A DNA stretch of 32,000 bases from an uncultured Planctomycetia bacterium (GCA_964536865.1 CAZHYN010000013.1:1-32000), one strand, 5' to 3'. Positions 7,177 to 22,282 are shown, counted from the first letter of the stretch. Numbers and translations are program-made. Notes: generated by a model from the letters alone, not told the origin.

Positions 7177-7757
7177 TGATGGATTCTTCTGCACACTCCA
7201 GATCTAACTTCACCCCACACTGGAGAGTTTTCTTACATTCTTGGTTTTTTAATAATTTTTCTCTCAAGAAGTGTGCCCTCACATTAGTTGAAATTATAGT
7301 AATTATTCTCATTATAGGAATTCTTGCCATAGTAGCTCTTCCTCGGTTCAGCGTTTTCTATGAGATAAGACTACAGGGAGCAGCCAAAAAAATAGTTTCC
7401 GATATAAGATACGCACAAAGTATGGCAATCTCTTACCATACTTTTACTCGTATAGTTTTTGATGAGAGTAGCGATACCTATAGGGGAGAGTATTTTTATG
7501 CTGACGAATGGAGGAATCTCCGTGATCCTTTAACTGGCGAGGATTTAGAACTAGATTTTCGTACCGACTATCAATATAAAGGCATAGATATTTTGAATGT
7601 AGATTTTGGGGGTACCACTACTTTAATGTTTGACTGGCAAGGTATTCCTCAGGATGAAAATGGTATGGAGCGCTCTGGTTCTCTAGGTTTATCTTACAAA
7701 GGTAGGCTTATCACTATAACAGTAGCTCCTCGAACAGGGAAAATTAACGTAGAGTGA
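7176..7757 (+). CDS. Prepilin-type minor pilin/pseudopilin, FimT/GspH-like
   Basis: Class III signal-like segment KKCA-LTLVEIIVIILIIGILAIVALPRF with Glu at +5. It is followed by AAKKIVSDIRYAQSMAI, typical of GspH/FimT-family proteins. First of four consecutive prepilin genes. Confidence 0.72.
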   Translation: MMDSSAHSRSNFTPHWRVFLHSWFFNNFSLKKCALTLVEIIVIILIIGILAIVALPRFSVFYEIRLQGAAKKIVSDIRYAQSMAISYHTFTRIVFDESSDTYRGEYFYADEWRNLRDPLTGEDLELDFRTDYQYKGIDILNVDFGGTTTLMFDWQGIPQDENGMERSGSLGLSYKGRLITITVAPRTGKINVE

Positions 7758-7758
7758 G

Positions 7759-8166
7759 ATGAAAGAGATTTATTCTTCTCTTTCTAAAAAAGGTATCACC
7801 CTTATTGAATTGATAGTGGTAATATTGATTTTGGCAATAGGTATTTCTGCTATTTTGGGACTTTTAGGAGAGACTGTTAGAAGAGTAAATGTAGCTGAGG
7901 AGATAGCTATTGCCACTTTTTACGCTCAGGAGAAAATGGAGGAGATAAAATCTAAAGATTTTGATGAAGTTGATGAATTAGAGGGAGAGGAAACTTTAGG
8001 AGAGGGATACGTAAGAACTACTTCTGTAGAATTTGCTTATCTTCAAGACGATGATTGGATTACTACTGAAGAGGTTACCGACTATAAGTTAATTAGAGTT
8101 TCCGTTTCTAAAGAAGGGAGTGCTACTCAAGGCGTTTTTCTAGTTACTGTGATAAGTAACTATTAG
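7759..8166 (+). CDS. Prepilin-type minor pilin/pseudopilin, PilV/GspI-like
   Basis: SKKG-ITLIELIVVILILAIGISA (G-1, E+5). Size (135 aa) and second position in the H-I-J-K order. Confidence 0.72.
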   Translation: MKEIYSSLSKKGITLIELIVVILILAIGISAILGLLGETVRRVNVAEEIAIATFYAQEKMEEIKSKDFDEVDELEGEETLGEGYVRTTSVEFAYLQDDDWITTEEVTDYKLIRVSVSKEGSATQGVFLVTVISNY

Positions 8167-8167
8167 A

Positions 8168-8707
8168 ATGAAAAGAGGAGTAACTTTAGTTGAATTAATT
8201 ATAACTATTGTTATAGTGGGAGTTTTATCTTTGGGAGTTGGTTGGTATTTTTCCAAAAGTATAGATATATGGAACTTTCTCTCCTTTAGAACAGAGATTT
8301 TAAATCAAGCAAGATTAGGAGTGGTAAGAATGGGGAGGGAGATCCGTCAGGTAAAAAAACCAACATTTGAGGAAGAAACCATTGAAGAAGCTACTTCTAC
8401 CTCCTTCCAATTTTTAGAGGTTACCTATGAGGGAGATAAGAGAATTAGATATAGATATGATGAAGCAGCTAAAAATTTATTTCGTGAAGAAGATTTCAAT
8501 ATGGATGAAGATTTTCAGGATACGAATGAATCCCAACTTCTCCTAACTGGCGTAGAAAATTTCCAATTTACTTACTTAGATAGGGAGGGTAATTCCACAT
8601 CAGTATTAGGAGAAATATATAGGATAAAAATTAATCTAGAGGTAAAAAGAGACGAAGAGTCTGTTCGAATTGATTATGAGGTTTTTCCTAGAAACTTTAA
8701 ATACTAA
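8168..8707 (+). CDS. Prepilin-type minor pilin/pseudopilin, PilW/GspJ-like
   Basis: MKRG-VTLVELIITIVIVGVLS (G-1, E+5). 179 aa, third position in the order. Confidence 0.68.
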   Translation: MKRGVTLVELIITIVIVGVLSLGVGWYFSKSIDIWNFLSFRTEILNQARLGVVRMGREIRQVKKPTFEEETIEEATSTSFQFLEVTYEGDKRIRYRYDEAAKNLFREEDFNMDEDFQDTNESQLLLTGVENFQFTYLDREGNSTSVLGEIYRIKINLEVKRDEESVRIDYEVFPRNFKY

Positions 8708-10049
8708 ACTTAGAAAAGGAATTACTTTAATCATTGCTATCTCACTTATGCTTATTTTAGCTCTTTTAGGATGGACGGTAGCTAACTTTCTAAGTGCTGA
8801 TTTGCGGATAAGCTCACGACTGCTTGATTCAGAGAGAGCTTTATACTTAACGGAAGCAGGGATCGATTGGACATTGAAGAAGTTGGGTACTGAATATGAC
8901 TGCGATATTGATGGAGACGGAAAGAAAATTTCATCAGGAACAGTAATCCACAATTTAAATTATGGTCAGTATAGAGTAAATTGCACCTGCGAGAACTCCC
9001 AGTGTGAGGGGAGTATCACTGTAGAAAGTATTGGTTATCTTCCTCAAGAGGCTACCTATTATGCAATGAGGAAAGTGGAAGTTACTATAGATCAGGCGGG
9101 TTTCACTAAGGCAGCATATGTAAGAAATCTCTTGGATTGGTCAGAGATGTCTTCTAGTTCTCGAATAGATGGGGATATTCAAGTATTGGTTGATGCCGGA
9201 GAAATCGATAAAGGGTTTGAAGGTCCAGATTTAGATACGATTACCAACGAACCCGAAGATTTAGAAATTCCAGGAAGTGGAGAGAGAATCGCGAAAGAAG
9301 GAAGGTACCCTACTATAGATATGGATTATTTTAAAGAATGGGCTCAAAGCGATGGTTATTATAGGAATTATTCAGCTGTGGCAGTGGTTACCAGTTCTGG
9401 GGGGGATACTATTGAGGTTGATCAGGCTGGGTTTTTTACTGGCAAGCAAGGGGAAGTGGTAAGGAACTTAGGAGAGACTCACGGAAGTTGGCAGGATACC
9501 GATTGGGCAGTTATTACCAAAGTTACCTTTGGAGGGAAGCGGGCGGAGTTAGATAGGGAAGTAGGAGATACTTGGCTAGGAGATTCTGTGAGAATAGTTA
9601 AAAGATTTAGAGGAGCTAATAACAACCAAAAACTTTGGTATATTGAGGGAAGTGATATTCTTATTGATTTAACGCAAATAGATGCTCAGTTTAATTACAC
9701 TTCTCTCGTCGCTGAGGGCGATGTTGTTCTTGTAGGAGGTGAAAGTATTAGTATGAAAGCGTATGTAAGTTCTGCTCCTTCTAAAGAGACCTTTCCTAAT
9801 TTAGCTACTAAAGAAGGAGATATCTACTTTAGAGATGCTCCCAAAGATGGAAAAAGTAAAAGCCATTCTTTTGACGGACTAATATATACAGAAAATGGAG
9901 ACGTCGTGATAAATTATATAGAGGGGATAGCCGTGATGGGTGATGATGTTTTTTGGGAAGGGATTATAAAGTTAGTATACGACGCAAAATACATCCCTAC
10001 TCAAGGCTTCCTAGGGAACGTGCAGATAATTACCTGGCGAGAAAAATAA
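8670..10049 (+). CDS. PilX/GspK-like large minor pilin lacking Glu+5 (candidate tip or priming subunit)
   Basis: LRKG-ITLIIAISLMLILALLGWTVA has a prepilin-like hydrophobic N-terminus but no E at +5, as in GspK/PilX. 459 aa with a Cys-rich patch NCTCENSQCEG. Overlaps the preceding gene by 38 nt. Confidence 0.6.
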   Translation: MIMRFFLETLNTKLRKGITLIIAISLMLILALLGWTVANFLSADLRISSRLLDSERALYLTEAGIDWTLKKLGTEYDCDIDGDGKKISSGTVIHNLNYGQYRVNCTCENSQCEGSITVESIGYLPQEATYYAMRKVEVTIDQAGFTKAAYVRNLLDWSEMSSSSRIDGDIQVLVDAGEIDKGFEGPDLDTITNEPEDLEIPGSGERIAKEGRYPTIDMDYFKEWAQSDGYYRNYSAVAVVTSSGGDTIEVDQAGFFTGKQGEVVRNLGETHGSWQDTDWAVITKVTFGGKRAELDREVGDTWLGDSVRIVKRFRGANNNQKLWYIEGSDILIDLTQIDAQFNYTSLVAEGDVVLVGGESISMKAYVSSAPSKETFPNLATKEGDIYFRDAPKDGKSKSHSFDGLIYTENGDVVINYIEGIAVMGDDVFWEGIIKLVYDAKYIPTQGFLGNVQIITWREK

Positions 10050-10131
10050 ATAAAGGAGAAAAACGAAACCTTTTTAAATATTTTTTACTCTTAAATCCCT
10101 AAATAATTTCCTACCTAAGAAGGGAATTATC

Positions 10132-10160
10132 TTGACACTTAAATATCTTGCTTGTAGAAT
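10132..10160 (+). promoter_or_regulatory. Sigma70-type promoter for the pilMN-O-P block (TTGACA-17-TAGAAT)
   Basis: TTGACA 10132..10137, TAGAAT 10155..10160, ATG 10170 (9-nt gap, no SD). Confidence 0.45.
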
Positions 10161-10169
10161 TTAAAATGA

Positions 10170-11927
10170 ATGAAAGAAAAAAAAATCCCGCCTTTTTCTA
10201 AAAAGAAAAGTGCCTTTTCAGAAGTTGCCTCTCTGATTAAAGGTTTTTTTGCTCTTACTTCTAGTACTATTGGAATAGATATAGGAGAAGGGTATATTAA
10301 GATTGTTCAATTCCAGAGGACTCGCAAAGGGTACACTATTAATGATTATAGAATAAGAGCTATCCCTTTTAAGGTGAAGGATAACCAGAGAGAAAAAGAA
10401 AAATTCATAAAAGAGTTCATTGCTGAATTTATCTCTCAATCTAGAATAAAAACTTCTCTAGGGAGAATTGCTATAAGAGGGAGTGGAGTATTCATCTTTT
10501 CCCTCCTTATGCCTTTACTTCCTGAGAAAGACTTACGAGGAGCGATAGGAATAGAGTTAAAGAAAAGATTACCTTACCAGATAGATTTCGCTAACGTTCA
10601 CTTTGACTATGTCATAACCGAACAATTAGTGGGAGAGACTTCTCAAGTCTTTGTTACCTGTGTTGCTGTAGATAATAAGGTTCTGGATAAGTACTTAGAT
10701 TTTTTGAAAGGATTCGGTCTTCGTCCGGAAGTGATAAATACAGACGTTGATGCTTTAGGCAACTTAGTTGAATTCATAGGTGAAGATCAGTATGTGGGAG
10801 TACTCGATATGGGAGCTAGAGATAGCTGTTTAAATTTCTATAAAAAGGGGACTCCTCAGTTTGCTCGAGAAATACCCATAGGGGGAGAACATATTACTGA
10901 AGGAGTTTTAAAAGCAATCGCAAGTTTAGGAGGTAATCCTTCTTTTGAAGACGCAGAAAATTTCAAAAGGCACTGTGGGATTCCTATGCGGGAGGAGGCT
11001 TACATTGATTTCTATACTGATTTTGGGGCATTGAAAGGTAATCAAATAACCACGGCAGTAAGGCCGATACTAGAGAGGTTAATTACAGAGGTATCACGGA
11101 CAGTAAATTTCTATATCCGTGCCTACAAGTTAGAGCAACTAGATACTCTCTACATTACCGGGGGAACATCACGCACCAGGAACATCGATAAGATTCTTTC
11201 CGCTAATTTAAAAAATCTTCCTATTAAGCGAATAGAGAAATTAGAACCTCTAAAGGTAGTGAAGAGTTGGTTTGTTACCGATGTTTTTAGACACGAGTTA
11301 GGGATAGAAGAAGCGGTATCTCATTTAGCAGTGGCTTTTGGACTTTGTCTTCGTAAAGGAGGGAAGATAAACATCATTCCTCCCCGAGAAAAAATGGAAC
11401 AGAAGGCATTATTTTTAATGTTCCTTACTCGCACTGTGTTTCCCTTTATTCTTTTTCTGACTCTAGGCTTCTATGCCTTCTTCTATGGGAAGTATCTTTT
11501 ATATAATATAATTATTGCTCGTCTTCAAGGGCAGGCTCAGAAGATTGCTCCTCTAACTAAGGAGATCGAAAGTTATCTTTCGGTTAAAAAAATATATGAA
11601 GAAAGAGAATCTCTTTTAAAAAAGGCTATAGGAGAACAGCCGTTGTGGTGGGGAATATTAAAAGAGTTAAGTAATATTACTCCTAAGGAGATTGTTCTGC
11701 ATAGTTTAGAAATAAAACCTGTCCTTCCTTCTTCTAATAGGATTCTTACTCTTACAGGAGAAGCTATAGCTAAGGTTACTAATCTTGATCTAGTAATAGC
11801 GGAATTTACTCTGAACCTAAATGAATCTCCCTTTTTTAGAAAGGCTAATTTAGTATCTACTGAGAGGGATGTGTCTTCATCTCTTCCTAGAGCGAAATTT
11901 AAAATAACCTGTGAGCTTGTATATTAA
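10170..11927 (+). CDS. pilM: Fused PilM (actin-like ATPase fold) - PilN protein (GspL-like topology)
   Basis: N-terminal TIGIDIGEGYIKIVQF and the later LDMGARDS / YITGGTSR are PilM/FtsA-like phosphate motifs. After AFGLCLRKGG comes the PilN hallmark INIIPPRE, one TM segment (LFLMFLTRTVFPFILFLTLGFYAFFYG), a coiled segment and a PilN-like periplasmic domain. Confidence 0.8.
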   Translation: MKEKKIPPFSKKKSAFSEVASLIKGFFALTSSTIGIDIGEGYIKIVQFQRTRKGYTINDYRIRAIPFKVKDNQREKEKFIKEFIAEFISQSRIKTSLGRIAIRGSGVFIFSLLMPLLPEKDLRGAIGIELKKRLPYQIDFANVHFDYVITEQLVGETSQVFVTCVAVDNKVLDKYLDFLKGFGLRPEVINTDVDALGNLVEFIGEDQYVGVLDMGARDSCLNFYKKGTPQFAREIPIGGEHITEGVLKAIASLGGNPSFEDAENFKRHCGIPMREEAYIDFYTDFGALKGNQITTAVRPILERLITEVSRTVNFYIRAYKLEQLDTLYITGGTSRTRNIDKILSANLKNLPIKRIEKLEPLKVVKSWFVTDVFRHELGIEEAVSHLAVAFGLCLRKGGKINIIPPREKMEQKALFLMFLTRTVFPFILFLTLGFYAFFYGKYLLYNIIIARLQGQAQKIAPLTKEIESYLSVKKIYEERESLLKKAIGEQPLWWGILKELSNITPKEIVLHSLEIKPVLPSSNRILTLTGEAIAKVTNLDLVIAEFTLNLNESPFFRKANLVSTERDVSSSLPRAKFKITCELVY

Positions 11928-11932
11928 GAATC

Positions 11933-12526
11933 ATGGAAGTTATAAAAGATAAGACTACTAAAGTAGCAGTAAACATAGGGATTTATATCGCTATTTTGGT
12001 TGTTTTCCACCTTTTTGTAGGTCGTCCAATATTTAGACTGGTAGATGGGAAAAAAAGTCGATACGAAGATTTCCAGAAAAGTTTACTTACTAAAGAAGAG
12101 TTGATAAAAGCTATCCCTAATCCTAACAAAGAAATTAGAGAAATTAAAGATAAGATAAAAGAGCTGGAAAAAAAATCCATCTCTCAGGAGAAACTTCCAA
12201 AGATTATTCAACAATTGACTAAGGAAAGCAGTAGATTGAATATAGAAATAATTTCTATAAGACCGGTGAAAGAACCACCTTTTAAAGAAGAGAATCTTTC
12301 CAAAGGAGTGAAGAAAGTTTATCTGGAGATAACTTTAAAAACCTCATATATAAATTTAGGTAATTATCTTAAAGCAATCGAGAAACTACCTATAATTTTT
12401 ACTATCGAATCTTTAGTAGTGAAAAGATTTGAGGAAACTAAAGAGAAGGATATCTCTAGAGAGGTTGGAAATAATCTTATTGCTAGTTTACTTATCAGTG
12501 GCTACAAGATAGAGAGTAGTCTTTAG
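11933..12526 (+). CDS. PilO/GspM-like bitopic alignment-complex protein
   Basis: 197 aa: short cytoplasmic N-terminus, one TM (VAVNIGIYIAILVVFHLFV), a coiled segment and a small C-terminal domain. Lies directly after pilMN. Confidence 0.55.
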   Translation: MEVIKDKTTKVAVNIGIYIAILVVFHLFVGRPIFRLVDGKKSRYEDFQKSLLTKEELIKAIPNPNKEIREIKDKIKELEKKSISQEKLPKIIQQLTKESSRLNIEIISIRPVKEPPFKEENLSKGVKKVYLEITLKTSYINLGNYLKAIEKLPIIFTIESLVVKRFEETKEKDISREVGNNLIASLLISGYKIESSL

Positions 12527-12532
12527 AGAAAA

Positions 12533-12997
12533 ATGGACAAAAAAAGAATTGAATTGATTATTACTTTGGGATTGATAGTAATCTTTATCTTTGTATTGGC
12601 AGGAAATCTTAAGCCTAAGAAACCCAAGCAAAAATTACCCCCCTCTCCTGAAGTCTCTGAAAAAGAAAGGAGTGCACCTATACCTAAAAAGAAGATAGAA
12701 AAGATTTTAAGAGCCTCTCCTCAGGAGATAGAAAAACAGAAAAATCGAGCGCAACTTAGTTGGGGGAGAGATCCTTTTTTCTCCTCTTTCCTAGTTAAAA
12801 AAGAGATCCCCAAAACCACTCCTCTTACTCTAAAAGGCGTAACTATAGGAAAAGATAAGAAAGGTTATGCATTTATCAATGATGAAATTGTCACTATTGG
12901 GGATACTATCGAAGGGTATCAGGTAATAGAAATTCAGAAAAACAAAGTTATTTTAAAAAGAGATAACGAACTTTTTTACTTAACCCTCCCTTATTAG
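12533..12997 (+). CDS. PilP/GspC-position protein: TM anchor, Pro/Lys-rich linker, small C-terminal beta-rich domain
   Basis: TM LIITLGLIVIFIFVLAG, linker KPKKPKQKLPPSPEVSEKERSAPIPKKK, C-terminus LKGVTIGKDKKGYAFINDEIVTIGDTIEGYQVIEIQKNKVILK. Called by position between the pilO-like gene and the secretin, not by a diagnostic motif. Confidence 0.45.
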   Translation: MDKKRIELIITLGLIVIFIFVLAGNLKPKKPKQKLPPSPEVSEKERSAPIPKKKIEKILRASPQEIEKQKNRAQLSWGRDPFFSSFLVKKEIPKTTPLTLKGVTIGKDKKGYAFINDEIVTIGDTIEGYQVIEIQKNKVILKRDNELFYLTLPY

Positions 12998-13017
12998 AAA
13001 GAAGCTAAAAGAGAGCT

Positions 13018-13045
13018 TTGACTATTTTTCTTTTTAAGTTATAAT
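13018..13045 (+). promoter_or_regulatory. Sigma70-type promoter for the secretin-to-PilZ operon (TTGACT-16-TATAAT)
   Basis: TTGACT 13018..13023, TATAAT 13040..13045, ATG 13053 (7-nt gap). TTG at 13050 is the ORF-track start. Confidence 0.5.
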
Positions 13046-13052
13046 AAAGTTG

Positions 13053-14534
13053 ATGAGAAAAATTGTTCTACTCCTTTTACTTCTTGGAGGGGGGCATTTT
13101 TTTATTAGTTTAGCTCAAACCCCTCAGGCTTTTCAAAAGGAGTCAGAGATTATAGAGTATTTGGAGTTTAGGGAAGTAGATATCAAGGATGCTCTAAGAC
13201 AACTCGCCAAACAGTATAATTTAAACATTGTATTTTCTGAGTCAGTAAAGGGATTGATTACTCTCCGTTTACATAATGTTACTGTAGAAGAAGCTTTAGA
13301 CTCTATTATTACTATCAATGGATTTGTTTATACTAAGAAAGGAAGTGTAATTAAGGTGACTACTCCTGAAGAAGTAAAAAAAGAAAGTAAGCAGACCAGA
13401 GTTTTTAAGTTGTATAATGCTGATGCTTCTAAACTTAAAGAGACTATAAAAAAAGTTCTTTCCTCTGAGGGGACCGTTGAGGCAGATGAACGTTCTAACT
13501 CCCTGATTATCACCGATAATCCTGCGGTAATAAGTAAAATTGAAAGTATGCTACCTTCCTTGGATGAGGCTTCTAAGCAAGTTCTGATTGAAGCTCGATT
13601 TATCGAAACTTCCTTAGGAACTACAGAAAAGTTAGGGATAGATTGGACGATTAATGCTGTAGCTAAAGCTTCTAAAAGACCTACTACTTTTCCTTTTCGT
13701 AAATGGGGTTCGGATAAAGATATGTATCCAGTGCCTTCTTATACCTCCGAATATGATAGCACTACAGGAACATGGAGCATAACTAGCGATTTTCCTGCAG
13801 GTGGTGAGGGTTATTTTTTTCCTACTTTCCCTCATCGCTTGGGTTCTTTTCCTATGGTGGGGGCAGATAAATTTACTTTCGGGACATTAGACTTTACTCA
13901 GTTTCAAGCAGTGTTAGATTTTCTTAAGACAAAAACTGATTCTAAACTTATCTCATCACCCCGGATAGTTACTATGGATAACAAGCGAGCAGAAATTTAT
14001 ATAGGCAAAGCCCGCCCCATTCCTACATTTGAATATAATTCTGAGACGGGGGAGTACCAAATTACAGGATTTGAAGAAAAAATTGAGGGAGTAATTCTTA
14101 CCGTAACTCCTCAGATAAAAAAAGTAGGAGATAAATATTATATAAAGCTAAGATTGAAGCCAAAAGTTACTACTTTTTCTAATGAAACAGTATCTTTTAC
14201 TAATCTGGGTTTTGAATATCCTTTGCTTTCTGAACGGTACACCGATACCGAAGTAATGATTGAAGATAATCAGACTATTGTTATTGGGGGGTTAATAGAG
14301 ACTAAGAGAACAGAAACTATTCATAAGGTTCCTTTCTTAGGGGATTTACCTTTGTTAGGTCTTCTTTTTCGACATAAAGAAATAAATCCTGATGCTAAAT
14401 CAGAGCTTATAATCTTTGTTACTGCCAGAGTTGTTAGAGAAGATGAGGGTCCACTCTTAGCTTACAGGAGTAACCTCATTACTTCCCCTCCTCACCCATT
14501 TAAGCTAAATTTAAGAGAGATCACAGTAAAATGA
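13053..14534 (+). CDS. pilQ: Secretin (PilQ/GspD family) outer-membrane channel
   Basis: Signal peptide MRKIVLLLLLLGGGHFFISLAQ. N0/N1-like domains (DIKDALRQLAKQYNLNIVF...; NSLIITDNPAVISKIESML). C-terminal secretin signature VPFLGDLPLLGLLFRHKE. Confidence 0.9.
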   Translation: MRKIVLLLLLLGGGHFFISLAQTPQAFQKESEIIEYLEFREVDIKDALRQLAKQYNLNIVFSESVKGLITLRLHNVTVEEALDSIITINGFVYTKKGSVIKVTTPEEVKKESKQTRVFKLYNADASKLKETIKKVLSSEGTVEADERSNSLIITDNPAVISKIESMLPSLDEASKQVLIEARFIETSLGTTEKLGIDWTINAVAKASKRPTTFPFRKWGSDKDMYPVPSYTSEYDSTTGTWSITSDFPAGGEGYFFPTFPHRLGSFPMVGADKFTFGTLDFTQFQAVLDFLKTKTDSKLISSPRIVTMDNKRAEIYIGKARPIPTFEYNSETGEYQITGFEEKIEGVILTVTPQIKKVGDKYYIKLRLKPKVTTFSNETVSFTNLGFEYPLLSERYTDTEVMIEDNQTIVIGGLIETKRTETIHKVPFLGDLPLLGLLFRHKEINPDAKSELIIFVTARVVREDEGPLLAYRSNLITSPPHPFKLNLREITVK

Positions 14535-15892
14535 AAAGAATCATCTTTTTCCTCTCTTTCTTTTTCATTCTTTCCCTCTTCCTTTTATTTCTCTTTTTTT
14601 CATTTTATCAGTCAAATATTTTTCAAGAAAGTATAGCTAACTTAGAAGAAGGGTTAAAAAGAGTTAGCTACCTTTTTGTGGAATCTAAATTATTTAATAA
14701 AAAATTAAAGGGAGATAATGAAAAGCTTTCTCAGGAGTTGAAAAAGTTAAGTGAAGAGAATACTTCCTTAAAAGAGCATATAGAAGAGTTAGACGAACGT
14801 ATCACTACCCTTAAAGATACTAATAGAGAGCTAATTAGAAAAGTTAAAGAGTTGACTGAAGAAAACAGACGTTTAAAAGAAGCTTTAGCTAAGTTGAAAG
14901 CTCAGTTACCTAAAGTATCCTTTAAGAAAGGAGAGAAAGTTTGTCCTGGTTTGGGAGGAGTGAGTTTAGATCCTAAAGAGAGAAAATATATTGAGTTCAT
15001 TATTCAGAGTATCTACAAGGAGTTAGATTCTTTAGGGACCAATGTGAATAGATTAGCTCAAGATGCTTCATCCTATAAGAACAAATTCTTAAGAAAAGAT
15101 GGGGAACTTAAAAAGAAGATTGAAGAAATTGAAAGTCTTCATAAGGAGCTTCAGCATTTTAGAGAGGAGAATATGGAGATGTTAGCTAAGCTGGGCACTT
15201 TAGAAAAAGAAAAGCAAAAGTATGTGGAAAAGATAAATTTACTTAGTAAGGAAAATCAAAATTTGAAAGATAATTTAAACAGCTTTAAGAAAGAAAAAGA
15301 GGTAATGATGTCCTACATAGAGGATTTGAAAAAGAGAAGTACTTTTACAAAGTCGGAGAGGAAGAATTTAGAGAAGACTATAAATGACTTAAAGAGTGAA
15401 CTCCAGCTTAAGATAGAGCATATAAAATCTCTGGAAAGAGAAATTGTTCAATTGAAGGAGGATTATCAAAGGACTATTAATCAGCATGAGATAGCTAAGG
15501 GGAAAATAGAAGAAGTAGAGAGAGAAATGGAGAGAAGAGCGGACAGGATACTAAAACTGGAGAATGAATTGAGAAGTAAGGAGGTATCCATAAAGGAATT
15601 AAATAGCAAACTAAAGAGACAGTTAAAGGAATTAGCTAGTTTAAGAGAATCTGTAGTAAAAGTTAGATTAGAAAATGCTTCTCTCTATAAGGAATTGGAG
15701 GCTAAAGAAGCAGCTTTTAATTCTTTAAAAAAACAGTTAGAAAAAATAGGTCAGTTAAGTACACAGTTTAGAGAGCAAGTTAACAAAGTTTCACAGTTAT
15801 TTACCTCTCCAGAGGAAAGTCAAAAGGAGGAAGAACCTGGCGAGAAAAAGATAGAGGTGGAGATAGAATCTATAGAAAGTAAAGAGAAGTAA
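14531..15892 (+). CDS. TM-anchored long coiled-coil protein, function unknown, translationally coupled to the secretin
   Basis: ATGA overlap with the secretin stop (14531..14534). N-terminal TM RIIFFLSFFFILSLFLLFLFFSF, then about 420 aa of E/K/L-rich heptad-like sequence, interrupted around CPGLGGVSLDPKERKYIEFIIQSIYKELDS. Confidence 0.7.
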   Translation: MKRIIFFLSFFFILSLFLLFLFFSFYQSNIFQESIANLEEGLKRVSYLFVESKLFNKKLKGDNEKLSQELKKLSEENTSLKEHIEELDERITTLKDTNRELIRKVKELTEENRRLKEALAKLKAQLPKVSFKKGEKVCPGLGGVSLDPKERKYIEFIIQSIYKELDSLGTNVNRLAQDASSYKNKFLRKDGELKKKIEEIESLHKELQHFREENMEMLAKLGTLEKEKQKYVEKINLLSKENQNLKDNLNSFKKEKEVMMSYIEDLKKRSTFTKSERKNLEKTINDLKSELQLKIEHIKSLEREIVQLKEDYQRTINQHEIAKGKIEEVEREMERRADRILKLENELRSKEVSIKELNSKLKRQLKELASLRESVVKVRLENASLYKELEAKEAAFNSLKKQLEKIGQLSTQFREQVNKVSQLFTSPEESQKEEEPGEKKIEVEIESIESKEK

Positions 15893-15901
15893 GTATTAAG
15901 T

Positions 15902-16621
15902 ATGAAGAGGAGAACTACTGATTGTTTTTATTTTGTTATTCGTAGGATTATTGAGTTTTTGGTCTTAGGGATGTTTCTTTTGTTGTTATTTGGAATTCTC
16001 TGTGAGAGAGGGGTGTACTGTAAAGAAGATAATGATAGCATGGCGATTGCTAATACCTACTACTTAAAAGGTAAAGAGTTTCTTCTTAAAGGAGAGTATC
16101 AGAAGGCTGACGAAGCTTTTAAGAAAGCGGAGAAGATTTTAAATAAAAAATCTTCTAAAAAAAAGGAAAGGCTCTCTCTAAGAAAGTCGGATTCCAAAAG
16201 AAGGAAGATTTCTTCTAAGATATCACCCTCTAATTTAGAGGCAGAGAGAAGGAAGATAGAGACTATTCTGGAGGCAGCAAAACAAGCTTACTTTGAAGGG
16301 AATTTAGAGTTAGCTTTAAGGCTGTATACCAGAGTGTTAAGAAAGTATCCTACCGATGCTGATCTTTACTACAATTTAGGAGTTATTTATCTAAAAAAAG
16401 CGGATTACCTTAGTGCTGCTGAGGAATTTAAAAGAGCAATTCTTTTAGATCCTAGCGATGCTGATGCTTACTATAATTTAGGAGTGATCTATGAGAATTT
16501 TCTCAATGATAAGGAAAAGGCTATTAGTCACTACCAGAGTTATTTGAAATTGTGCACTTCTGAAGAAGAAAAGAGGGAGATTAAAAGATGGATAGAGAGG
16601 CTTAGAAGGGAAGGACGATGA
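15902..16621 (+). CDS. Membrane-anchored TPR-repeat protein (possible PilF/PilW/Tgl-like secretin pilotin)
   Basis: TPR repeats (ADLYYNLGVIYLKKADYLSAAEEFKRAILLDPSDADAYYNLGVIYENF). Hydrophobic N-terminus with Cys residues but no canonical lipobox. Lies between the secretin block and pilB, with an ATGA overlap onto pilB. Confidence 0.7.
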   Translation: MKRRTTDCFYFVIRRIIEFLVLGMFLLLLFGILCERGVYCKEDNDSMAIANTYYLKGKEFLLKGEYQKADEAFKKAEKILNKKSSKKKERLSLRKSDSKRRKISSKISPSNLEAERRKIETILEAAKQAYFEGNLELALRLYTRVLRKYPTDADLYYNLGVIYLKKADYLSAAEEFKRAILLDPSDADAYYNLGVIYENFLNDKEKAISHYQSYLKLCTSEEEKREIKRWIERLRREGR

Positions 16622-18435
16622 ATGACGAGGAGTTAAAAGATATTCTTTTGCAAGCGAATTTACTCACTCCTCAGGATATTGAGAGGGCAATTGAGGAGAC
16701 TAAAAAGCTTAAGCGCCCTCTAGAACAGGTAATTTTGGATATGCGCCTTTTAGACAGAGAAGTTCTTTACAGAACCATAGCTCAAAAACTAGAAGTAGAG
16801 TATAAAAAAATAGATAATTTAACTGTTCCTAAAGAGCTGTTAAGAATATATCCTGAAGATTTAGCCCGTTCTACTAAGTCTGTACCTTTGTTTATAAAAG
16901 AAGGGACTCTTCATGTTGCTTTAGCTAATCCACAAGATTTTACTTTAACTGATCAGATTCAGTTATTTACCAACTATCCTCTCTTTGTGTATCTCTCTTC
17001 CCCTCAGGAGATTGAAGAAGCTATTAACCGTATTTATCGTGAAGAGAAAGAGGAGATACTTTTTACTGATTTAGAAACACCTCCTACGGTGAGCCCTAAA
17101 AAAGAAGAGGAGAGTAAGCCTTTAAGTGAGACTACCTCTATCATAAAGGTGGTAGATTTACTTATCACTCAAGCAGTAAGAGACAGAGCTAGTGATATTC
17201 ATATTGAGCCAGAGGAAAGTGTTACTAGGATAAGATTTAGAATAGATGGAATTCTTCACGAAGTACCTCCTCCTCCTAAAGAGTGGGAATCAGCTATAAT
17301 TTCTCGGATAAAAGTCTTAGCAGGGATGGATATTGCAGAGTCCCGTTCTCCTCAGGATGGTCATTTTCAGGCCACTATAGATGATAAACTTATTGATTTC
17401 CGTGTTTCTACCTTACCTACTATCCATGGGGAAAATGTAGTATTAAGGCTGTTGGATACTGCTTCCGTAGCTATAGGTTTGGAAAAGTTAGGGTTTACCA
17501 CCCCTCAAGACTTAAAGAAGTATGAAGAGCTAATTACCAAACCTTATGGAATAATTCTTTCTACAGGTCCTACAGGATGTGGTAAGACTACCACTTTATA
17601 CTCTGCTTTAATGAGAATAAATACCATGGATAAAAATATTATTACTTTAGAAGATCCTGTGGAGTATCGTTTAGGTTTAATAAGGCAGGTTCAGGTTAAT
17701 CCTAAAGCAGGAATTACCTTTGCTAATGGTTTGAGAGCAATCCTTCGTCAGGACCCCGATGTAATAATGGTAGGAGAGATAAGAGATTTAGAGACTGCAC
17801 GAATGGCTGTTCAAGCAGCGTTAACAGGACATCTAGTATTTTCTACCCTTCATACTAACGATGCTCCCAGTGCAGTCGCTCGCCTGATAGATATGGGAGT
17901 AGAGGACTTTTTGGTTGCTGCGTCTTTAATAGGAGTTATGGCTCAGAGACTGGTGAGGGTTATCTGTCTTAAGTGCAAAGAAGCGTATAAACCCTCACCT
18001 ACCATACTTAAGAAGTGGCGGATAGAAAAAGAAGATGTGGAAGTTTACCGAGCTGAAGGGTGTCCGGAGTGCAAAGGAACTGGTTACCGAGGTAGAACAG
18101 GAATATTTGAACTAATGGTGGTTGATGATGAAATAAAAGAGATGATTAATCAGGGAGCTTCCACAGTAGCTTTAAGAAAAAAAGCTCAAGAGAAAGGAAT
18201 GCGTCTTCTTTGGGAAGATGGGAGAGAAAAAGTTTTGAGAGGGATCACTACCTTTGAGGAAGTAGCTAGGGTTTGTGAGGAACAAATCGAAGTTAAACCT
18301 GCAAAGATAGAAGTAAAGCCTTACTTAGGAAAAGAAATAGAAGTAAAAAGAGCTACTGTTAGAGAGGTGAAAATTGACCCTAAGGCTTTAGAAGAGTACC
18401 GTGCCCGTATTGCTCGCTGGATGAAGAATGAGTAA
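16618..18435 (+). CDS. pilB: Type IV pilus assembly / T2SS ATPase (PilB/GspE family)
   Basis: N-terminal T2SSE_N-like domain. Walker A GPTGCGKTT, Asp box, Walker B DPDVIMVGEIRD, His box. Tetracysteine motif CLKC...CPEC. About 50 extra C-terminal residues. Confidence 0.92.
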   Translation: MNDEELKDILLQANLLTPQDIERAIEETKKLKRPLEQVILDMRLLDREVLYRTIAQKLEVEYKKIDNLTVPKELLRIYPEDLARSTKSVPLFIKEGTLHVALANPQDFTLTDQIQLFTNYPLFVYLSSPQEIEEAINRIYREEKEEILFTDLETPPTVSPKKEEESKPLSETTSIIKVVDLLITQAVRDRASDIHIEPEESVTRIRFRIDGILHEVPPPPKEWESAIISRIKVLAGMDIAESRSPQDGHFQATIDDKLIDFRVSTLPTIHGENVVLRLLDTASVAIGLEKLGFTTPQDLKKYEELITKPYGIILSTGPTGCGKTTTLYSALMRINTMDKNIITLEDPVEYRLGLIRQVQVNPKAGITFANGLRAILRQDPDVIMVGEIRDLETARMAVQAALTGHLVFSTLHTNDAPSAVARLIDMGVEDFLVAASLIGVMAQRLVRVICLKCKEAYKPSPTILKKWRIEKEDVEVYRAEGCPECKGTGYRGRTGIFELMVVDDEIKEMINQGASTVALRKKAQEKGMRLLWEDGREKVLRGITTFEEVARVCEEQIEVKPAKIEVKPYLGKEIEVKRATVREVKIDPKALEEYRARIARWMKNE

Positions 18436-18460
18436 AGTTAACTTTTTGTTAGTTTAAGCT

Positions 18461-19723
18461 ATGGGTATCTATATCTATAAAGCAGTTGATGCCAAAGGTA
18501 AGATAGTAAAGGGAAAGATCGAAGCACCTACAGAGACTGATGTTTCTATCCAATTAGCTAAGCTAGGGTATATTCCTATAAGTATAGGATTTAAGGGAGA
18601 AAAAGCTCCTCCTTTAAGAGAACGGTTATTTAAAAAAAGATTTCGTAGAACTTCTTCTCATGCTTTAGTAGTATTTACTCGGCAATTTGCTACTATGGTG
18701 AAGGCAGCGGTTCCCATTGTTGAGGGGTTAAAGGTACTGGCTGAGCAAGCCGAGGATGATAATTTAAAAGAAGCTCTTTTCAGAGTAATTGAAGATATAG
18801 AGGAGGGAAAGAAGCTATCCGAAGCCTTAACAAAACATCCCGGAGTATTTAGCCAGCTCTACGTTAATACTGTGGTAGCAGGGGAGGTAGGAGGAGTGTT
18901 AGATAAAGTTCTTTTAAGGTTAGCAAATGTTTTAGAGGAAGAACAAGAGATAAAAATGAATATGAAATCTGCACTAAGATACCCTATAATAGTAATGGTA
19001 GCTCTCATTATTGCTGTAATTATTCTCTCTGTAAGAGTGGTACCTACTTTTGCTAAAGTTTATTCTAGGATGAATATAAGCTTACCTCTTCCTACTCGGA
19101 TAATGATTCTTATGAGTAATTTTTTTCTCGGCCCCTGGAGAGACAGTTCTAACTTTTTGTTAAAAATTCTATGGTTTATGATTCTTCTTGGTATAGCTGT
19201 AGGGGCATTTTTATCTTTTAAATTATTCATAACTACTCCTGGAGGAAGACGTTGGTGGGATAATGCTAAATTTAGAATGTATATATTTGGGAAAATCTAT
19301 AAAAAAATAACTATGCTTAGGTTTGCTTCAATGCTCAATGTGCTTTATCAGGCAGGACTTCCCATTCTTAATATTCTGGATGTTGTAAAAATCACTATTG
19401 GGAACGTGGTGTTAGCTAAAGAGTTGGATAATGTAAAAAGGTTTGTAGCTGATGGTAAAGGAATTTCTGGAGGTCTTTTAGGTAGCAAATTATTTCCCCC
19501 ACTAGTTTCTTATATGGTCTCTGTAGGAGAAAAGGCAGGGGCATTATCTACTATGCTTGATTCTCTATGTGAGTACTATTCCTTAGAAGTAAGAACTTCT
19601 CTAAAAAACTTAACCTCTTTGATTGAGCCTATTATGACTTTAGTTTTAGGGGTAGTGATAGGAGGAATGGCTTTAGCGATATTCCTGCCTATGTGGAATT
19701 TGATTTCTATTATCCGAAGATAA
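18461..19723 (+). CDS. pilC: Type IV pilus / T2SS inner-membrane platform protein (PilC/GspF family)
   Basis: 420 aa with two repeated GspF-type cytoplasmic domains (FTRQFATMVKAAVPIVEGL; MLRFASMLNVLYQAGLPILNIL) and three TM segments. Directly follows pilB. Confidence 0.9.
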   Translation: MGIYIYKAVDAKGKIVKGKIEAPTETDVSIQLAKLGYIPISIGFKGEKAPPLRERLFKKRFRRTSSHALVVFTRQFATMVKAAVPIVEGLKVLAEQAEDDNLKEALFRVIEDIEEGKKLSEALTKHPGVFSQLYVNTVVAGEVGGVLDKVLLRLANVLEEEQEIKMNMKSALRYPIIVMVALIIAVIILSVRVVPTFAKVYSRMNISLPLPTRIMILMSNFFLGPWRDSSNFLLKILWFMILLGIAVGAFLSFKLFITTPGGRRWWDNAKFRMYIFGKIYKKITMLRFASMLNVLYQAGLPILNILDVVKITIGNVVLAKELDNVKRFVADGKGISGGLLGSKLFPPLVSYMVSVGEKAGALSTMLDSLCEYYSLEVRTSLKNLTSLIEPIMTLVLGVVIGGMALAIFLPMWNLISIIRR

Positions 19724-20533
19724 GTGATTTTTGGTTTTTTAATAGGAATAGTTATTCTAATAATTTATATTATTATCTCTTCCTGGTGGTGGAGAAGAAA
19801 ATTACATTTTTATGTTAAAAAATCTCGAGAAGAGGAAGCTAGACTCATTCATCTAGAGAAAATGGCCTCTTTAGGAACTTTAGCTGCTGGAGTAGCTCAT
19901 GAGATTAATAATCCTTTGACCTTTCTTCTTACTAATCTAGGACTCCTTTCTCACTATATAAAAGAGGAGAAGAGAGTCAAAGAAGAGTTACAAAAAGAAA
20001 TAAGTGTAATTTTAGATGAGTGTAACGAAGGAGTGAATAGAATAAAGAGGATTGTTCAAGATCTGCTTTCTTTTTCTCACCGCTCACGAGGTAAAAAAGT
20101 TTCTACAAACATCAATGAGTTGCTGGATGTAAGTATAAGAATTCTATGGAATGAGATAAAGTATAAGGTTGATATAGTAAAAAATTATGAAGCAGTAACT
20201 CCTCTTCGGATAGATCCTAATCAACTAAGTCAAGTATTTTTAAATATAATCATCAACGCTACTCATGCAGTAAAGAATAAAGGGACAATTTTTCTTTCTA
20301 CCCAAGAGAATGAGAAGGAATTTATCATTAAGGTTTCTGATACAGGAGAAGGAATTCCTAAAGAAGTTCTTCCCAAGATTTTTGAACCTTTCTTTACTAC
20401 TAAGGGAGGTACGGGTTTAGGACTCTATGTAAGCAAAAATATTGTGGAGAATATGGGGGGTAGGATAGAAGTAGAAACTCAATTGGGAGAGGGTAGTACA
20501 TTCACTATTTTTCTGCCTAAAGTTAAAAAATAA
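19724..20533 (+). CDS. Minimal histidine kinase (one TM, HisKA, HATPase_c; no recognisable sensor domain)
   Basis: H-box GVAHEINNPL, N-box NIIINATHA, G1 DTGEGI, G2 GGTGLGL. The GTG start abuts the pilC stop with no gap. Confidence 0.85.
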   Translation: MIFGFLIGIVILIIYIIISSWWWRRKLHFYVKKSREEEARLIHLEKMASLGTLAAGVAHEINNPLTFLLTNLGLLSHYIKEEKRVKEELQKEISVILDECNEGVNRIKRIVQDLLSFSHRSRGKKVSTNINELLDVSIRILWNEIKYKVDIVKNYEAVTPLRIDPNQLSQVFLNIIINATHAVKNKGTIFLSTQENEKEFIIKVSDTGEGIPKEVLPKIFEPFFTTKGGTGLGLYVSKNIVENMGGRIEVETQLGEGSTFTIFLPKVKK

Positions 20534-20554
20534 TTTCTTTAAGAGAAAAGTGCT

Positions 20555-20908
20555 ATGGGAGTAGAGAAAAGAAAGTATCCTAGGGTTAAGGTTAAGTTTT
20601 CCGTAGAGTATAGGGGGAAGAATGTTTGGCAAAACGCTGAGATTGACAATATCTCCAGAGGGGGGATGTTTATTGTTACGGAGAAGATAGAGCCACCAGG
20701 AACAAATATAGAGCTTATTTTTGAACTAGGAGAAAGTAAGAGGAAGATCCAAGCTCAAGGAGTAGTGGTGTGGACACGTACTCAATCTCAGCACAATCAT
20801 GAAGGTAGGCTTCTCCCTCAGGGTATGGGAGTCCAATTCACCAAAATTTTCCCTGGAGAAGCAGAAAATTTTTTGGCTGATTTAATAGAGAAGTGGAGAG
20901 ATGGATAA
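20555..20908 (+). CDS. Single-domain PilZ protein with intact c-di-GMP-binding motifs
   Basis: RxxxR = RKYPR and (D/N)xSxxG = NISRGG, at the canonical spacing near the N-terminus. 117 aa. Confidence 0.85.
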   Translation: MGVEKRKYPRVKVKFSVEYRGKNVWQNAEIDNISRGGMFIVTEKIEPPGTNIELIFELGESKRKIQAQGVVVWTRTQSQHNHEGRLLPQGMGVQFTKIFPGEAENFLADLIEKWRDG

Positions 20909-21473
20909 ACATACTATTCTCGTTGTAGATGATGAGCCTAATATAGTTTCTTCCCTAAAGAGGGTTCTTGCCTCCGAGGATAGAGAGATTTTATCTGCCT
21001 ATAGTGCTGAAGAGGCTTGGAGGCTTCTTCAAGAGAAGGGAGAAGTAGAGGTAATTATTTGTGATAATAAATTACCGGGAGCCTCTGGCGTAGAATTCCT
21101 TTCCAAAGTAAAAACTGCTCATCCCCACACAGTAAGAATTCTTATTACTGGTTATCCTGATTTGACCAGTGTTGCAGAGGCAATAGATAAGGCAGGCATC
21201 TGGCGGTACCTCTTAAAGCCTGTAGAGATAGAGGAGTTAAAAACTTTAGTAAACCAGGCTTTTGGTTACTATAGGATTTTAAAAGAAAATCAAATTCTTT
21301 TTGATATCGTTTGTCAACAAGCGGAGTGGCTTAAGGTATTAAGAGAAAAGTATCCTGAGATTGTGTCCCGGGAAGTAGAAGAAGGGAAGATAATTGATAT
21401 AGAATGGAGAGAAGCTTCTGACACAGTTAGAAAATTCATAGAAAAGTACTACCTTCACAAAAAAGGAGAATGA
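20901..21473 (+). CDS. Response regulator: receiver domain plus about 70 aa of uncharacterised C-terminal extension (no DNA-binding or enzymatic output recognised)
   Basis: ILVVDDEPNI, phospho-acceptor context IICDNKLPG, ILITGY, YLLKP. Overlaps the PilZ gene by 8 nt and the next gene by 4 nt (ATGA). Confidence 0.85.
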   Translation: MDKHTILVVDDEPNIVSSLKRVLASEDREILSAYSAEEAWRLLQEKGEVEVIICDNKLPGASGVEFLSKVKTAHPHTVRILITGYPDLTSVAEAIDKAGIWRYLLKPVEIEELKTLVNQAFGYYRILKENQILFDIVCQQAEWLKVLREKYPEIVSREVEEGKIIDIEWREASDTVRKFIEKYYLHKKGE

Positions 21474-22282
21474 AAGAGTTAGAAAAAAGATTGGTAAAAG
21501 AAGGATGGGTTACCTCTGCTCAACTTATAAAAGCTAAGGAAGAGCAGAAGAAAAAAAAGAAGAAATCCTTATTCTCTGTTTTAGTAACTTTGGGATATCT
21601 AAGTGAAGAGGATATTTACCTATTCTTTGCTCAGAGTGCTCAGATACCTTTTGTAAGGCCAGGCGATTATCTTTCAGATGAAGAACTTTTTAATCTTTTT
21701 TCCGAAGACTTCTATCGGGAGCATCTTTTTGTTCCTCTCTTTAGAATAGGAAATACTCTTTACATTGGGACTGCTAATCCCCTGGATACAGAGTTTATGG
21801 ATACCTTAAGGAAGCATACTAATTTAGATATCTTTCCTCTATTTGCCTCTCCTTCTTCTATCTTAGAGGCAATAAATCGTGTATTTGGGCCAGAGAAAGT
21901 ATACTTACAGTTAGAGGAGTTAGTTAGTTTCTCTCCTTCATTAAGTATACTACCCTTAGGAAGAGAATCTGAAAGGATAGTGATAAATACACCTGTAGAG
22001 TTTAAAGTTATTGACAAGAGGATAACTTTAGCATCTTCTCAATATCTAAAGGGAACTGCTTTGAATATTTCTCAAAGTGGTAAGGGGGTAGGGATAAGGA
22101 CTTTTCTTTTTCTTCCTTCTGGAGCAAAGATTCTTCTAAAGTTTCCTTCATTCGATCCTAATTGTGAATTAGAAGCAGAGATAACCCACTGCAGAATGGA
22201 ACAAGGTTATTATTTCTTAGGAGTGAAATTTCTCCAAACAAGAAAAGATTTATTAAGATATTTATTGGAAGAAAAAAAATAA
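21470..22282 (+). CDS. T2SSE_N (GspE/PilB/MshE N-terminal domain)-like :: PilZ fusion protein
   Basis: The N-terminus LEKRLVKEGWVTSAQLIKAKEEQKKKKKKSLFSVLVTLGYLSEEDIYLFFAQSAQIPF resembles the N-terminal domain of GspE/PilB/MshE ATPases. The C-terminus carries RxxxR (RESER) and (D/N)xSxxG (NISQSG) PilZ motifs. Confidence 0.7.
   Translation: MKELEKRLVKEGWVTSAQLIKAKEEQKKKKKKSLFSVLVTLGYLSEEDIYLFFAQSAQIPFVRPGDYLSDEELFNLFSEDFYREHLFVPLFRIGNTLYIGTANPLDTEFMDTLRKHTNLDIFPLFASPSSILEAINRVFGPEKVYLQLEELVSFSPSLSILPLGRESERIVINTPVEFKVIDKRITLASSQYLKGTALNISQSGKGVGIRTFLFLPSGAKILLKFPSFDPNCELEAEITHCRMEQGYYFLGVKFLQTRKDLLRYLLEEKK

Follow-up and report, generated by a model that had tools for sequence, protein, structure and literature searches.

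A membrane-anchored coiled-coil protein encoded between the secretin and TPR genes is probably a previously undescribed part of the Omnitrophota type IV pilus machine

A gene for a long coiled-coil protein lies between the genes for the secretin and a tetratricopeptide repeat (TPR) protein in a type IV pilus cluster of the kind found in Omnitrophota, and its sequence and genomic setting indicate that the product is probably a previously undescribed part of the pilus machine. The analysis is based on a DNA stretch of 32,000 nucleotides (nt) deposited as an uncultured Planctomycetia bacterium (GCA_964536865.1 CAZHYN010000013.1:1-32000), referred to in its entire length as the window. The target open reading frame (ORF), taken from the ORF list and the sequence, is complete, occupies positions 14531..15892 on the + strand and encodes a bitopic coiled-coil protein of 453 amino acids (aa). 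The family to which it belongs is locked into the secretin-TPR module of the type IV pilus cluster, has no described relatives and has so far been seen only in Omnitrophota.

The target comprises 453 codons, and its ATG (14531-14533) overlaps the TGA of the secretin gene (14532-14534), giving an ATGA start/stop overlap at 14531..14534 on the + strand (aaaATGAaa, listed with three bases shared). The original prediction had placed the start of the ORF within the secretin stop codon, as this overlap confirms, and had described the gene as the clearest unexplained structural gene of the cluster; it indeed proves to be a genuine gene without a family match. An identical protein is carried by a Logan contig, and an ortholog with the same position and the same 4-nt overlap is present in a Guaymas Basin metagenome-assembled genome of Candidatus Omnitrophota (QNCE01000027.1), with an identity of 88% according to tblastn and 93% in the MAFFT alignment. 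The sole indel that separates the target from a near-identical ortholog corresponds to exactly three LKEDNKK-type heptads (63 nt or 21 residues, at 14710..14711 on the + strand, relative to the ortholog in loci L002 and L012 in the alignment) and preserves Leu at the d and Asn at the a positions. The ratio of nonsynonymous to synonymous divergence (dN/dS, Nei-Gojobori) against the L002 ortholog is 0.23, which denotes purifying selection, and the same comparison gave lower values for the other genes compared (secretin 0.085, TPR gene 0.155, pilB 0.057). The target gene is therefore real and under purifying selection that is more relaxed than that on the pore and enzymatic components. Between the same two regions (13050-18435 of the window and 2785-8226 of L002) synonymous divergence (dS) is lower in the secretin (0.11), coiled-coil (0.13) and TPR (0.22) genes than in pilB (0.63). 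Such a mosaic in genomes that are otherwise close suggests that recombination has had a breakpoint near the junction of the TPR gene and pilB.

Conservation of the gene position was first checked with secretin homologs 48-67% identical to the window secretin. In each homolog locus checked, the secretin is preceded by a PilM-N fusion, PilO and a PilP-like protein (~155 aa) and followed by a protein of 375-533 aa, then a TPR protein and an MshEN-PilB; the 375-533-aa proteins had no match in Pfam, but their translations contain the motifs of the target family. Even the weakest phmmer match tested, P0157 (E-value 1.8e-4), occupies this slot. With a secretin alignment as anchor, a scan of metagenomes then provided 72 loci, and hidden Markov models (HMMs) built from the family alignments were run on all their + strand ORFs. 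When distinct Omnitrophota-type secretin loci with at least 600 nt downstream were counted (n = 46), a family member followed the secretin in every one of them, its start overlapping the secretin stop in 31 (by 4 nt in 22 loci, by 11 in eight and by 17 in one). In 36 of 36 loci the next gene after the family member encodes a TPR protein, with an overlap in 26, and the PilB gene comes after that; the secretins of the family-bearing loci are 44-98% identical. Among all loci retrieved, none showed the coiled-coil protein fused to the TPR protein, the secretin or PilB. Absence of the gene beside pilQ in relatives had been named at the outset as the observation that would speak against a link with the secretin; such relatives were looked for, and the gene was present at all 46 loci. 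Three loci have an additional ORF inserted at the junction of the two genes; the inserted ORFs of L052 (5131-6258) and L053 (7401-8417), 338-375 aa in length, have lipobox-like N-termini (LLSGC and LIAGC) and lie between secretin and coiled-coil gene, where they may encode a true pilotin in those lineages. Directly after pilC, locus L011 additionally harbors a second module (14392-17413) with genes for an MshEN protein, a secretin of 636 aa and a further TPR protein, and with no coiled-coil family gene between this secretin and its TPR gene.

The family itself was delineated by an exhaustive phmmer search against 1.84 billion cluster representatives, which yielded 39 family clusters at E <= 1e-3 and 22 at E <= 1e-10. 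Word-indexed homology searches with the full target or a C-terminal profile returned essentially no matches, because coiled-coil words saturate the candidate list. The target has no Pfam, NCBIfam or PDB relative, matching only generic coiled-coil models below threshold (SMC arms, myosin, bZIP): the PDB search with the single target sequence gave zero matches, the PDB profile search retrieved nothing beyond a generic coiled-coil resemblance to myosin, tropomyosin, SMC and the like, and a Foldseek comparison of the AlphaFold2 model with the PDB found nothing (best E-value 8.9). Among 25 members, no Pfam family was matched by more than five, and all matches were to generic coiled-coil models. The few members with public names are called "hypothetical protein [Ca. 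Omnitrophota]" or, wrongly, "chromosome segregation ATPase", the latter by JGI for the ortholog P0121. An SMC identity of the target was rejected, given a score of 58.8 bits on SMC_prok_B against a cut-off of 567 and coverage of coiled-coil arm positions 688-982 only, and the name is thus an annotation artefact.

Family members range threefold in length, from 294 to 935 aa, with a central rod of 154-667 residues from motif to motif. Their common plan begins with a basic N-terminus, a transmembrane (TM) helix that often ends in FYQ(S/A)K and a first coiled coil, which is followed by a hinge (VPLKEKIK...SIYxELxSLD...EPLYR), the variable rod, a gap-free C-terminal block of ~80-100 residues (xRADxIxxLQ...LKELAxLRExxVKxxLEN), a low-complexity spacer and the terminal motif KxVxVEIxSV. 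All of these elements (TM helix, coiled coil 1, hinge motif, variable rod, head and terminal motif) are recognizable in the target, whose hinge is degenerate in that it has the SIYKELDSL but not the VPLKEKIK half. A Glu in the middle of the TM helix (LVEAI/LVEVI) occurs in seven of the 25 members, P0121, P0125, P0128, P0132, P0133, P0135 and P0152 (alignment A2, columns 1-30); it is located ~7 residues past the last basic residue and recalls Glu5 of type IV pilins, without a Gly at -1, and the window protein has Ser/Phe in its place.

The composition of the target is dominated by Glu (15.9%), Lys (15.2%) and Leu (13.5%), together 45% of all residues. Its N-terminal signal-anchor TM helix (residues ~4-26, 14540..14608 on the + strand), preceded by M-K-R and recognized by hydropathy, is the only TM-like stretch, with a 19-residue Kyte-Doolittle mean of up to 3.0, in agreement with the single N-terminal helix that had been proposed. 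All 25 aligned family members have a basic N-terminus and a hydrophobic stretch of 22-23 residues, after which no small -3/-1 cleavage motif was found when these sequences were read directly. Since the N-terminus is basic, a cleavage motif is lacking and the flank following the target TM helix is acidic (E33, E39, E40), the positive-inside rule predicts an N-in, C-out topology with an uncleaved signal anchor and three cytoplasmic residues.

Heptads assigned with a Viterbi register-tracking script are unbroken over residues 31-134 and 148-453, so that the long heptad-like E/K/L sequence described earlier withstands a register check. Coiled coil 1 (residues 31-126, ~14 nm; 14621..14908 on the + strand; register analysis and AlphaFold2 helix) has Leu at 10 of 10 d positions within residues 57-126 and, at its a positions, Asn four times, Leu three times, Ile twice and Val once; sub-threshold Pfam matches to bZIP and generic coiled-coil models fall on residues 56-133. 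A core of Leu at d and Asn at a is a well-known hallmark of zippers that dimerize in parallel and in register. Coiled coil 2 (residues 179-420, ~36 nm; 15065..15790 on the + strand; AlphaFold2 helix, with the register continuous from residue 148) includes in its central part the length-variable rod of the family, and carries net charges of -12 at g and +4 at e positions, with nine attractive and five repulsive g-e' pairs. On the basis of the Leu/Asn core and the g/e charge pattern, the target would probably pair with itself as a parallel coiled coil, perhaps a dimer. An antiparallel fold-back hairpin, which would shorten the rod, is possible but unsupported, as the register is unbroken, the AlphaFold2 model has no turn, and an E-rich g together with a K-rich e position would create like-charge g-g' and e-e' contacts.

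The two coiled coils are separated by a hinge (residues 127-178, 14909..15064 on the + strand), a Pro/Gly-rich break followed by the SIYxELxSL family motif, which here reads IIQSIYKELDSLG. The heptads break from residue 127 to ~147, where P127, P139, P148, G134, G140, G142, G143 and C138 are found, so that three of the five prolines of the target and its single Cys are located at the break. A non-coil break had originally been placed at residues 135-165; the break itself stands, running from 127 to ~147 in the heptad assignment and, a little wider than proposed, over 125-178 in AlphaFold2, with low confidence for residues 126-176. The AlphaFold2 model, built with the 25-sequence family alignment, consists of two uninterrupted straight helices (residues 2-124 and 179-420) with a predicted local distance difference test score (pLDDT) mostly of 80-95, being 83-91 in the first and up to 95 in the second helix, whereas residues 125-178 and 421-453 are low-confidence coil without helix; the model has no fold-back, no turn within the helices and no globular domain. 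At 0.1485 nm per residue the two rods measure ~14 nm and ~36-40 nm, or ~50 nm if straight.

The most conserved elements are found toward the C-terminus. The head (residues 333-413, 15527..15769 on the + strand), defined from the gap-free family alignment and from the conservation of its columns projected onto the register, contains residues that hardly vary and do not follow the a/d core pattern: R336 (at d, 96%), A337, K366, E367, A369, R372 (at e, 96%), E373, V376 (at b, 92%), L380 (at f, always hydrophobic) and N382 (at a). Because conservation reaches beyond the a/d core, this pattern would be that of a binding surface or a higher-order bundle and not of a plain spacer. An acidic, Pro-containing spacer (residues 421-438) separates the head from the terminal motif KxVxVEIxSV (residues 439-448, here KKIEVEIESI; 15845..15874 on the + strand), which the family alignment presents as an amphipathic, beta-strand-like peptide conserved at K439 (92%), V441 (83%), V443 (96%), I445 (100% hydrophobic) and S447 (75%).

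Given this architecture and setting, we tentatively favor, with a confidence approaching an even call, the reading that the target is an inner-membrane-anchored, length-tolerant periplasmic tether or brace for a minimal secretin in the type IVa pilus (T4aP)/MSHA-like machine of Omnitrophota. The protein would enter the inner membrane through its N-terminal signal anchor, leaving three residues in the cytoplasm and the rest in the periplasm, and would then pair with itself in a parallel, in-register coiled coil, most likely as a dimer. The resulting stalk would consist of the two rods joined by the conserved hinge and would bear at its distal end the most conserved elements, the 80-residue head and the terminal beta-strand peptide, both of which could serve as docking sites. 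The likely partners would be the products of the two coupled genes, the short secretin without an AMIN domain and the periplasmic TPR protein, as suggested by the conserved distal head and strand, by the coupling to both neighbors, by the signal peptides of the TPR orthologs and by the Akkermansia Amuc_1098 family, which combines TPR and secretin in one polypeptide and whose model is matched by both window proteins. The stalk would thereby tether or position the outer-membrane module relative to the inner-membrane platform, with the central rod acting as a length-tolerant spacer and not as a ruler. The genes flanking the target encode periplasmic or outer-membrane proteins, and a link from the inner membrane to the secretin ring would be the most economical idea. 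A more specific proposal, that the target is an extra, phylum-specific core subunit in which a parallel inner-membrane coiled-coil stalk clamps the secretin-TPR module by its distal head and terminal strand and so connects the two membranes by a second route, mechanically distinct from that through PilP, is possible and rather doubtful.

Several observations weigh against the tether. A straight stalk of ~50 nm, and of >100 nm in the 935-aa member, exceeds the usual periplasm, and the coefficient of variation of total length across the family is 0.20, whereas that of the PilP-like protein is 0.03; like the latter, the secretin hardly changes in length across the family loci. A rod that varies in this way and is too long cannot be a perpendicular strut of fixed length, but must be hinge-bent, tilted, lateral or slack, and a fixed-length periplasmic ruler was rejected since the rod covers 154-667 residues between motifs while the PilP-like protein remains at 149-175 aa across loci. 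The early suggestion that an extended coil could span a periplasm is thus borne out with respect to the great length of the rod and fails as to a simple fixed-length strut. Moreover, the cluster already possesses a PilP/GspC-like protein, and it is such a protein that ordinarily connects the inner membrane to the secretin; the stretch following the TM helix is basic in one subfamily (KSKARLL), which weakens the positive-inside argument for those members; and the balance of g-e' pairs favors parallel pairing only mildly. A last point comes from the mannose-sensitive haemagglutinin (MSHA) operon of Vibrio cholerae, whose order mshI-J-K-L-M-N-E-G (PMC4624765) is matched by the window from PilM-N to PilC: a PilM/N-like protein, a PilO-like protein, a small protein, the secretin, one gene, the TPR protein, the MshEN ATPase and a PilC-like platform. 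The slot between secretin and TPR gene holds MshM, an ExeA-like AAA ATPase, in Vibrio and a TM plus coiled-coil protein here, and the window TPR gene stands in the MshN slot. Deletion of mshM or mshN in Vibrio did not reduce surface pili (PMC4624765), so that genes in such a neighborhood can be dispensable for assembly.

It is the same slot that lends itself to the first alternative, an assembly factor which, together with the TPR protein, would transiently target, oligomerize or insert the secretin through the peptidoglycan and into the outer membrane and be absent from the mature machine, in functional analogy to the pilotins or to ExeA/ExeB (GspA/GspB). Besides the position of the target in the place of the ExeA-like mshM, its translational coupling to the secretin and TPR genes and a secretin devoid of AMIN or other peptidoglycan-binding domains fit this proposal, and TPR proteins beside secretins are often assembly factors (PilF/PilW/Tgl). 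We nevertheless regard it as unlikely, as the target has no ATPase motif, peptidoglycan-binding domain or lipobox, several relatives keep a separate AAA_22 (MshM-like) gene, so that the coiled-coil protein is no replacement for it, and the overlap of the reading frames suggests that the products are made in near-stoichiometric amounts, as is more typical of subunits.

The excessive length of the rod leads to a second, somewhat less probable alternative, a lateral periplasmic collar or cage in which dimeric rods would run approximately parallel to the membranes and form a ring or lattice with the TPR protein, by analogy with FlbB/FlcA, bracing the machine against retraction forces. A rod far longer than the width of the periplasm and free to vary would be tolerable for a tangential element and not for a strut, and the lengths of the coiled-coil and TPR proteins co-vary across loci (Spearman 0.64, not corrected for phylogeny). 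The coiled-coil and TPR proteins also give weak matches to FlbB and FlcA, far below the cut-offs, but these reflect generic coiled-coil and TPR similarity, and no sign of lateral self-association was seen.

An opposite topology (N-out, C-in) is improbable. It would turn the target into a cytoplasmic rod that scaffolds or localizes PilM, PilB and effectors of cyclic di-GMP (c-di-GMP) in the manner of a polar landmark; a rod of at least 50 nm would fit the cytoplasm more easily than the periplasm, the basic post-TM flank of the one subfamily would agree with it, and the cluster is rich in cytoplasmic regulators (MshEN-PilZ, PilZ, histidine kinase, response regulator). However, the N-terminus is basic (M-K/R-K/R) in all members and the post-TM flank of the target is acidic, and the gene is located in the envelope block (PilO, PilP-like protein, secretin, TPR protein with signal peptide) and not beside pilM or pilB.

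Still more remote is an exported surface fiber, for which the protein would be pulled out of the membrane and presented through the secretin or next to it, to act in host attachment as an adhesin or a stalk associated with the pilus. Heptad-unit length changes between near-identical strains and a relaxed constraint (dN/dS 0.23 against 0.06-0.09 for PilB and secretin) recall surface fibrils, the pilin-like TM Glu (LVEAI) is present in the seven members named above, and pili of Omnitrophota have been proposed to act in host attachment (PMC10066038). Yet a prepilin peptidase site is missing (no Gly at -1), the target itself lacks the TM Glu, there is no adhesin-like globular domain, and the far end is the most conserved part, the opposite of what is expected of an exposed tip under diversifying selection. 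Finally, a generic low-complexity coiled-coil passenger without a role in the pilus, which the below-cut-off generic coiled-coil matches in all databases and the public names of the orthologs might suggest, is largely refuted by a position kept in 46 of 46 loci though the secretins are only 44-98% identical, by conserved coupling, by family-specific motifs outside the coiled-coil core and by purifying selection.

The original prediction had stated that known secretin partners do not have such an architecture, and this holds for PilP/GspC, the TPR pilotins, TsaP, FimV, MshM/ExeA and PilN/PilO. No HR, TPR, LysM, AAA or T2SSB domain was detected by Pfam or NCBIfam in the target or in 25 relatives. 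Individually, an identity with MshM/ExeA (GspA) was rejected for want of an AAA_22 or P-loop match above noise and of a GxxxxGK[ST] motif in the target, and a replacement of MshM because several relatives hold a separate AAA_22 gene besides the coiled-coil gene; PilP/GspC was rejected in the absence of a T2SSC/PilP match and an HR domain, a pilotin (PilF/PilW/Tgl) in the absence of a TPR match and a lipobox, and TsaP/FimV in the absence of a LysM match in the target or the 25 relatives. A type IV pilin or pseudopilin was likewise discarded, as there is no N_methyl match, no Gly before the hydrophobic stretch and no Glu within that of the target. The FlbB collar protein (16.3 bits against a cut-off of 110) and Rz-type spanins (LysB, 16.5 bits against 92.75) were rejected on score. 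For PilN and PilO no Pfam match was obtained and AlphaFold2 gave no globular domain, and a derivation from PilO was rejected on hhalign (probability of 1.6% against the window PilO). Other secretin-associated proteins, including GspA/GspB and the SlkA/SlkB plugs, do not comprise a TM-anchored coiled coil of ~400 residues either.

In shape, the target would be closest to bitopic periplasmic tethers such as the PilN/PilO stems, TolA and FlbB/FlcA, by analogy and not by homology. PilN/PilO (GspL/GspM) are similarly bitopic inner-membrane proteins, in which a short tail in the cytoplasm leads through a single TM helix into a dimerizing coiled coil in the periplasm, and are encoded in the same cluster, but their coiled coil has ~50 residues and is joined to a ferredoxin-like core, whereas in the target the coiled coil extends over ~370 residues and a globular domain is missing. 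TolA resembles the target in its N-terminal TM anchor, in a long helical domain that exceeds the width of the periplasm and in a conserved C-terminal domain, by which it contacts partners on the outer-membrane side. CpoB/YbgF combines a coiled coil and a TPR domain in one protein, much like the pair of coiled-coil and TPR genes described here. No sequence relationship with TolA or CpoB was detected, the TPR neighbor scoring 31 bits on the YbgF model against a cut-off of 90, and, unlike Tol-Pal, the window cluster has no TolQ/R-like energizing partner. In the spirochaete flagellar collar, a TM-anchored coiled-coil protein (FlbB) and a periplasmic TPR protein (FlcA) likewise scaffold an envelope-spanning machine; the machine is a different one, however, and the similarity is generic (FlbB 16 bits against 110, FlcA 37.5 against 300).

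The window cluster spans 6268-23071 and comprises an ORF with a signal/TM segment and coiled coil, four minor-pilin-like genes, a PilM-N fusion, PilO, the PilP-like protein, secretin, target, TPR protein, PilB, PilC, a histidine kinase, PilZ, a response regulator, MshEN-PilZ and a pilin. The short secretin (494 aa, 13050..14534 on the + strand) contains STN/N0, one Secretin_N and the secretin domain according to Pfam (E-value 2e-40) and NCBIfam, neither of which finds an AMIN domain, and its scores on the GspD and PilQ models exceed that on the MshL model. The TPR protein (239 aa, 15902..16621 on the + strand) was recognized by its Pfam TPR matches, so that the proposed location of the target between secretin and TPR genes is upheld by Pfam on both sides, and is followed by the PilB/GspE ATPase with an MshEN domain and then by PilC. 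Read directly, the orthologs of the TPR protein have ordinary cleavable signal peptides, and neither they nor the window protein have a lipobox, so that its earlier description as pilotin-like is not sustained. The N-terminus of the window TPR protein is unusual (MKRRTTDCFYFVIRRIIEFLVLGMFLLLLFGILCERG), with a hydrophobic stretch and the sequence FGILC, which does not make a canonical lipobox. The PilP-like gene (154 aa, 12533-12997) gives weak T2SSC, T2SSB and CdsD_C matches.

As pattern matches only, the four best promoter-like sites of a consensus scan (6227, with 12/12 matches, 10132, 13018 and 22325) are all intergenic. One of them (TTGACT-16-TATAAT, 13018..13045 on the + strand, 11/12 matches) lies just upstream of the secretin, and no terminator-like site was found by the pattern scan between the secretin and pilB, which supports the earlier assignment of the target to a pilQ-to-pilB transcription unit; a strong terminator-like hairpin, again a pattern match, follows the pilin gene at 23093. 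The perfect promoter-like site (TTGACA-16-TATAAT, 6227-6254) precedes a second coiled-coil ORF of 302 aa (6268-7176, + strand), which has an N-terminal signal/TM segment MKLIRIGGLFLLLIFIFFLSAF followed by coiled coil and opens the minor-pilin operon, its stop overlapping the start of the next gene at 7176. Paralogy of this ORF with the target was rejected, as it scores 30 bits on the family HMM against 388 for the target and BLASTP, hmmsearch and hhalign detect diffuse coiled-coil similarity only.

Further features of the cluster are shared with its relatives to different degrees. The PilM-PilN fusion (585 aa, 10170-11927), with PilM_2 at residues 35-396 and PilN at 496-583, resembles MshI and is common to all related loci. 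The AAA_22 (MshM/ExeA-like) gene of several relatives, encoding 277-280 aa, lies between pilB and pilC (L003 13535-14377, L005 13490-14332, L007 13604-14446, L009 12465-13298); it is missing there in the window (pilB-pilC gap 18435-18461), L008 and L011, and is thus a component that is variably present or encoded elsewhere. After pilC, a c-di-GMP/two-component block (19724-22282) contains genes for a histidine kinase (19724-20533), PilZ (20555-20908), a response regulator (20901-21473) and MshEN-PilZ (21470-22282), and given its conservation in relatives the activity of the pilus is probably controlled by c-di-GMP. Two adjacent genes for TPR-rich proteins (630 and 659 aa, 23108-26969 on the - strand) are located directly past the pilin gene and its terminator.

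Type IV pili are near-universal in Omnitrophota, where a phylum-wide survey types these clusters as T4aP in nearly all members and proposes the pili as the attachment organ of ultra-small, host-dependent bacteria (PMC10066038). The target gene is mentioned neither in that survey nor in a further paper on Omnitrophota. A coiled-coil accessory protein by itself is no conceptual surprise, the organisms are uncultured, and the finding is a variation on a known machine and not a new kind of system. Still, its invariable place next to the secretin and TPR genes, usually with translational coupling on both sides, makes the gene a strong candidate for a component so far missing from the machine, and nothing equivalent is known from the intensively studied systems of Pseudomonas, Myxococcus, Neisseria, Thermus or Vibrio. 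The analysis also corrects database noise, in which orthologs appear as "chromosome segregation ATPase" or "hypothetical protein", and names candidate interaction elements, namely the hinge motif, the head (residues 333-413) and the terminal strand (residues 439-448). If the target is indeed an extra core subunit that clamps the secretin-TPR module, a flexible tether or tension-bearing brace could let ultra-small episymbiotic cells pull on their hosts with a minimal, AMIN-less secretin, and the extra subunit would represent a new architectural solution within the type IV filament superfamily.

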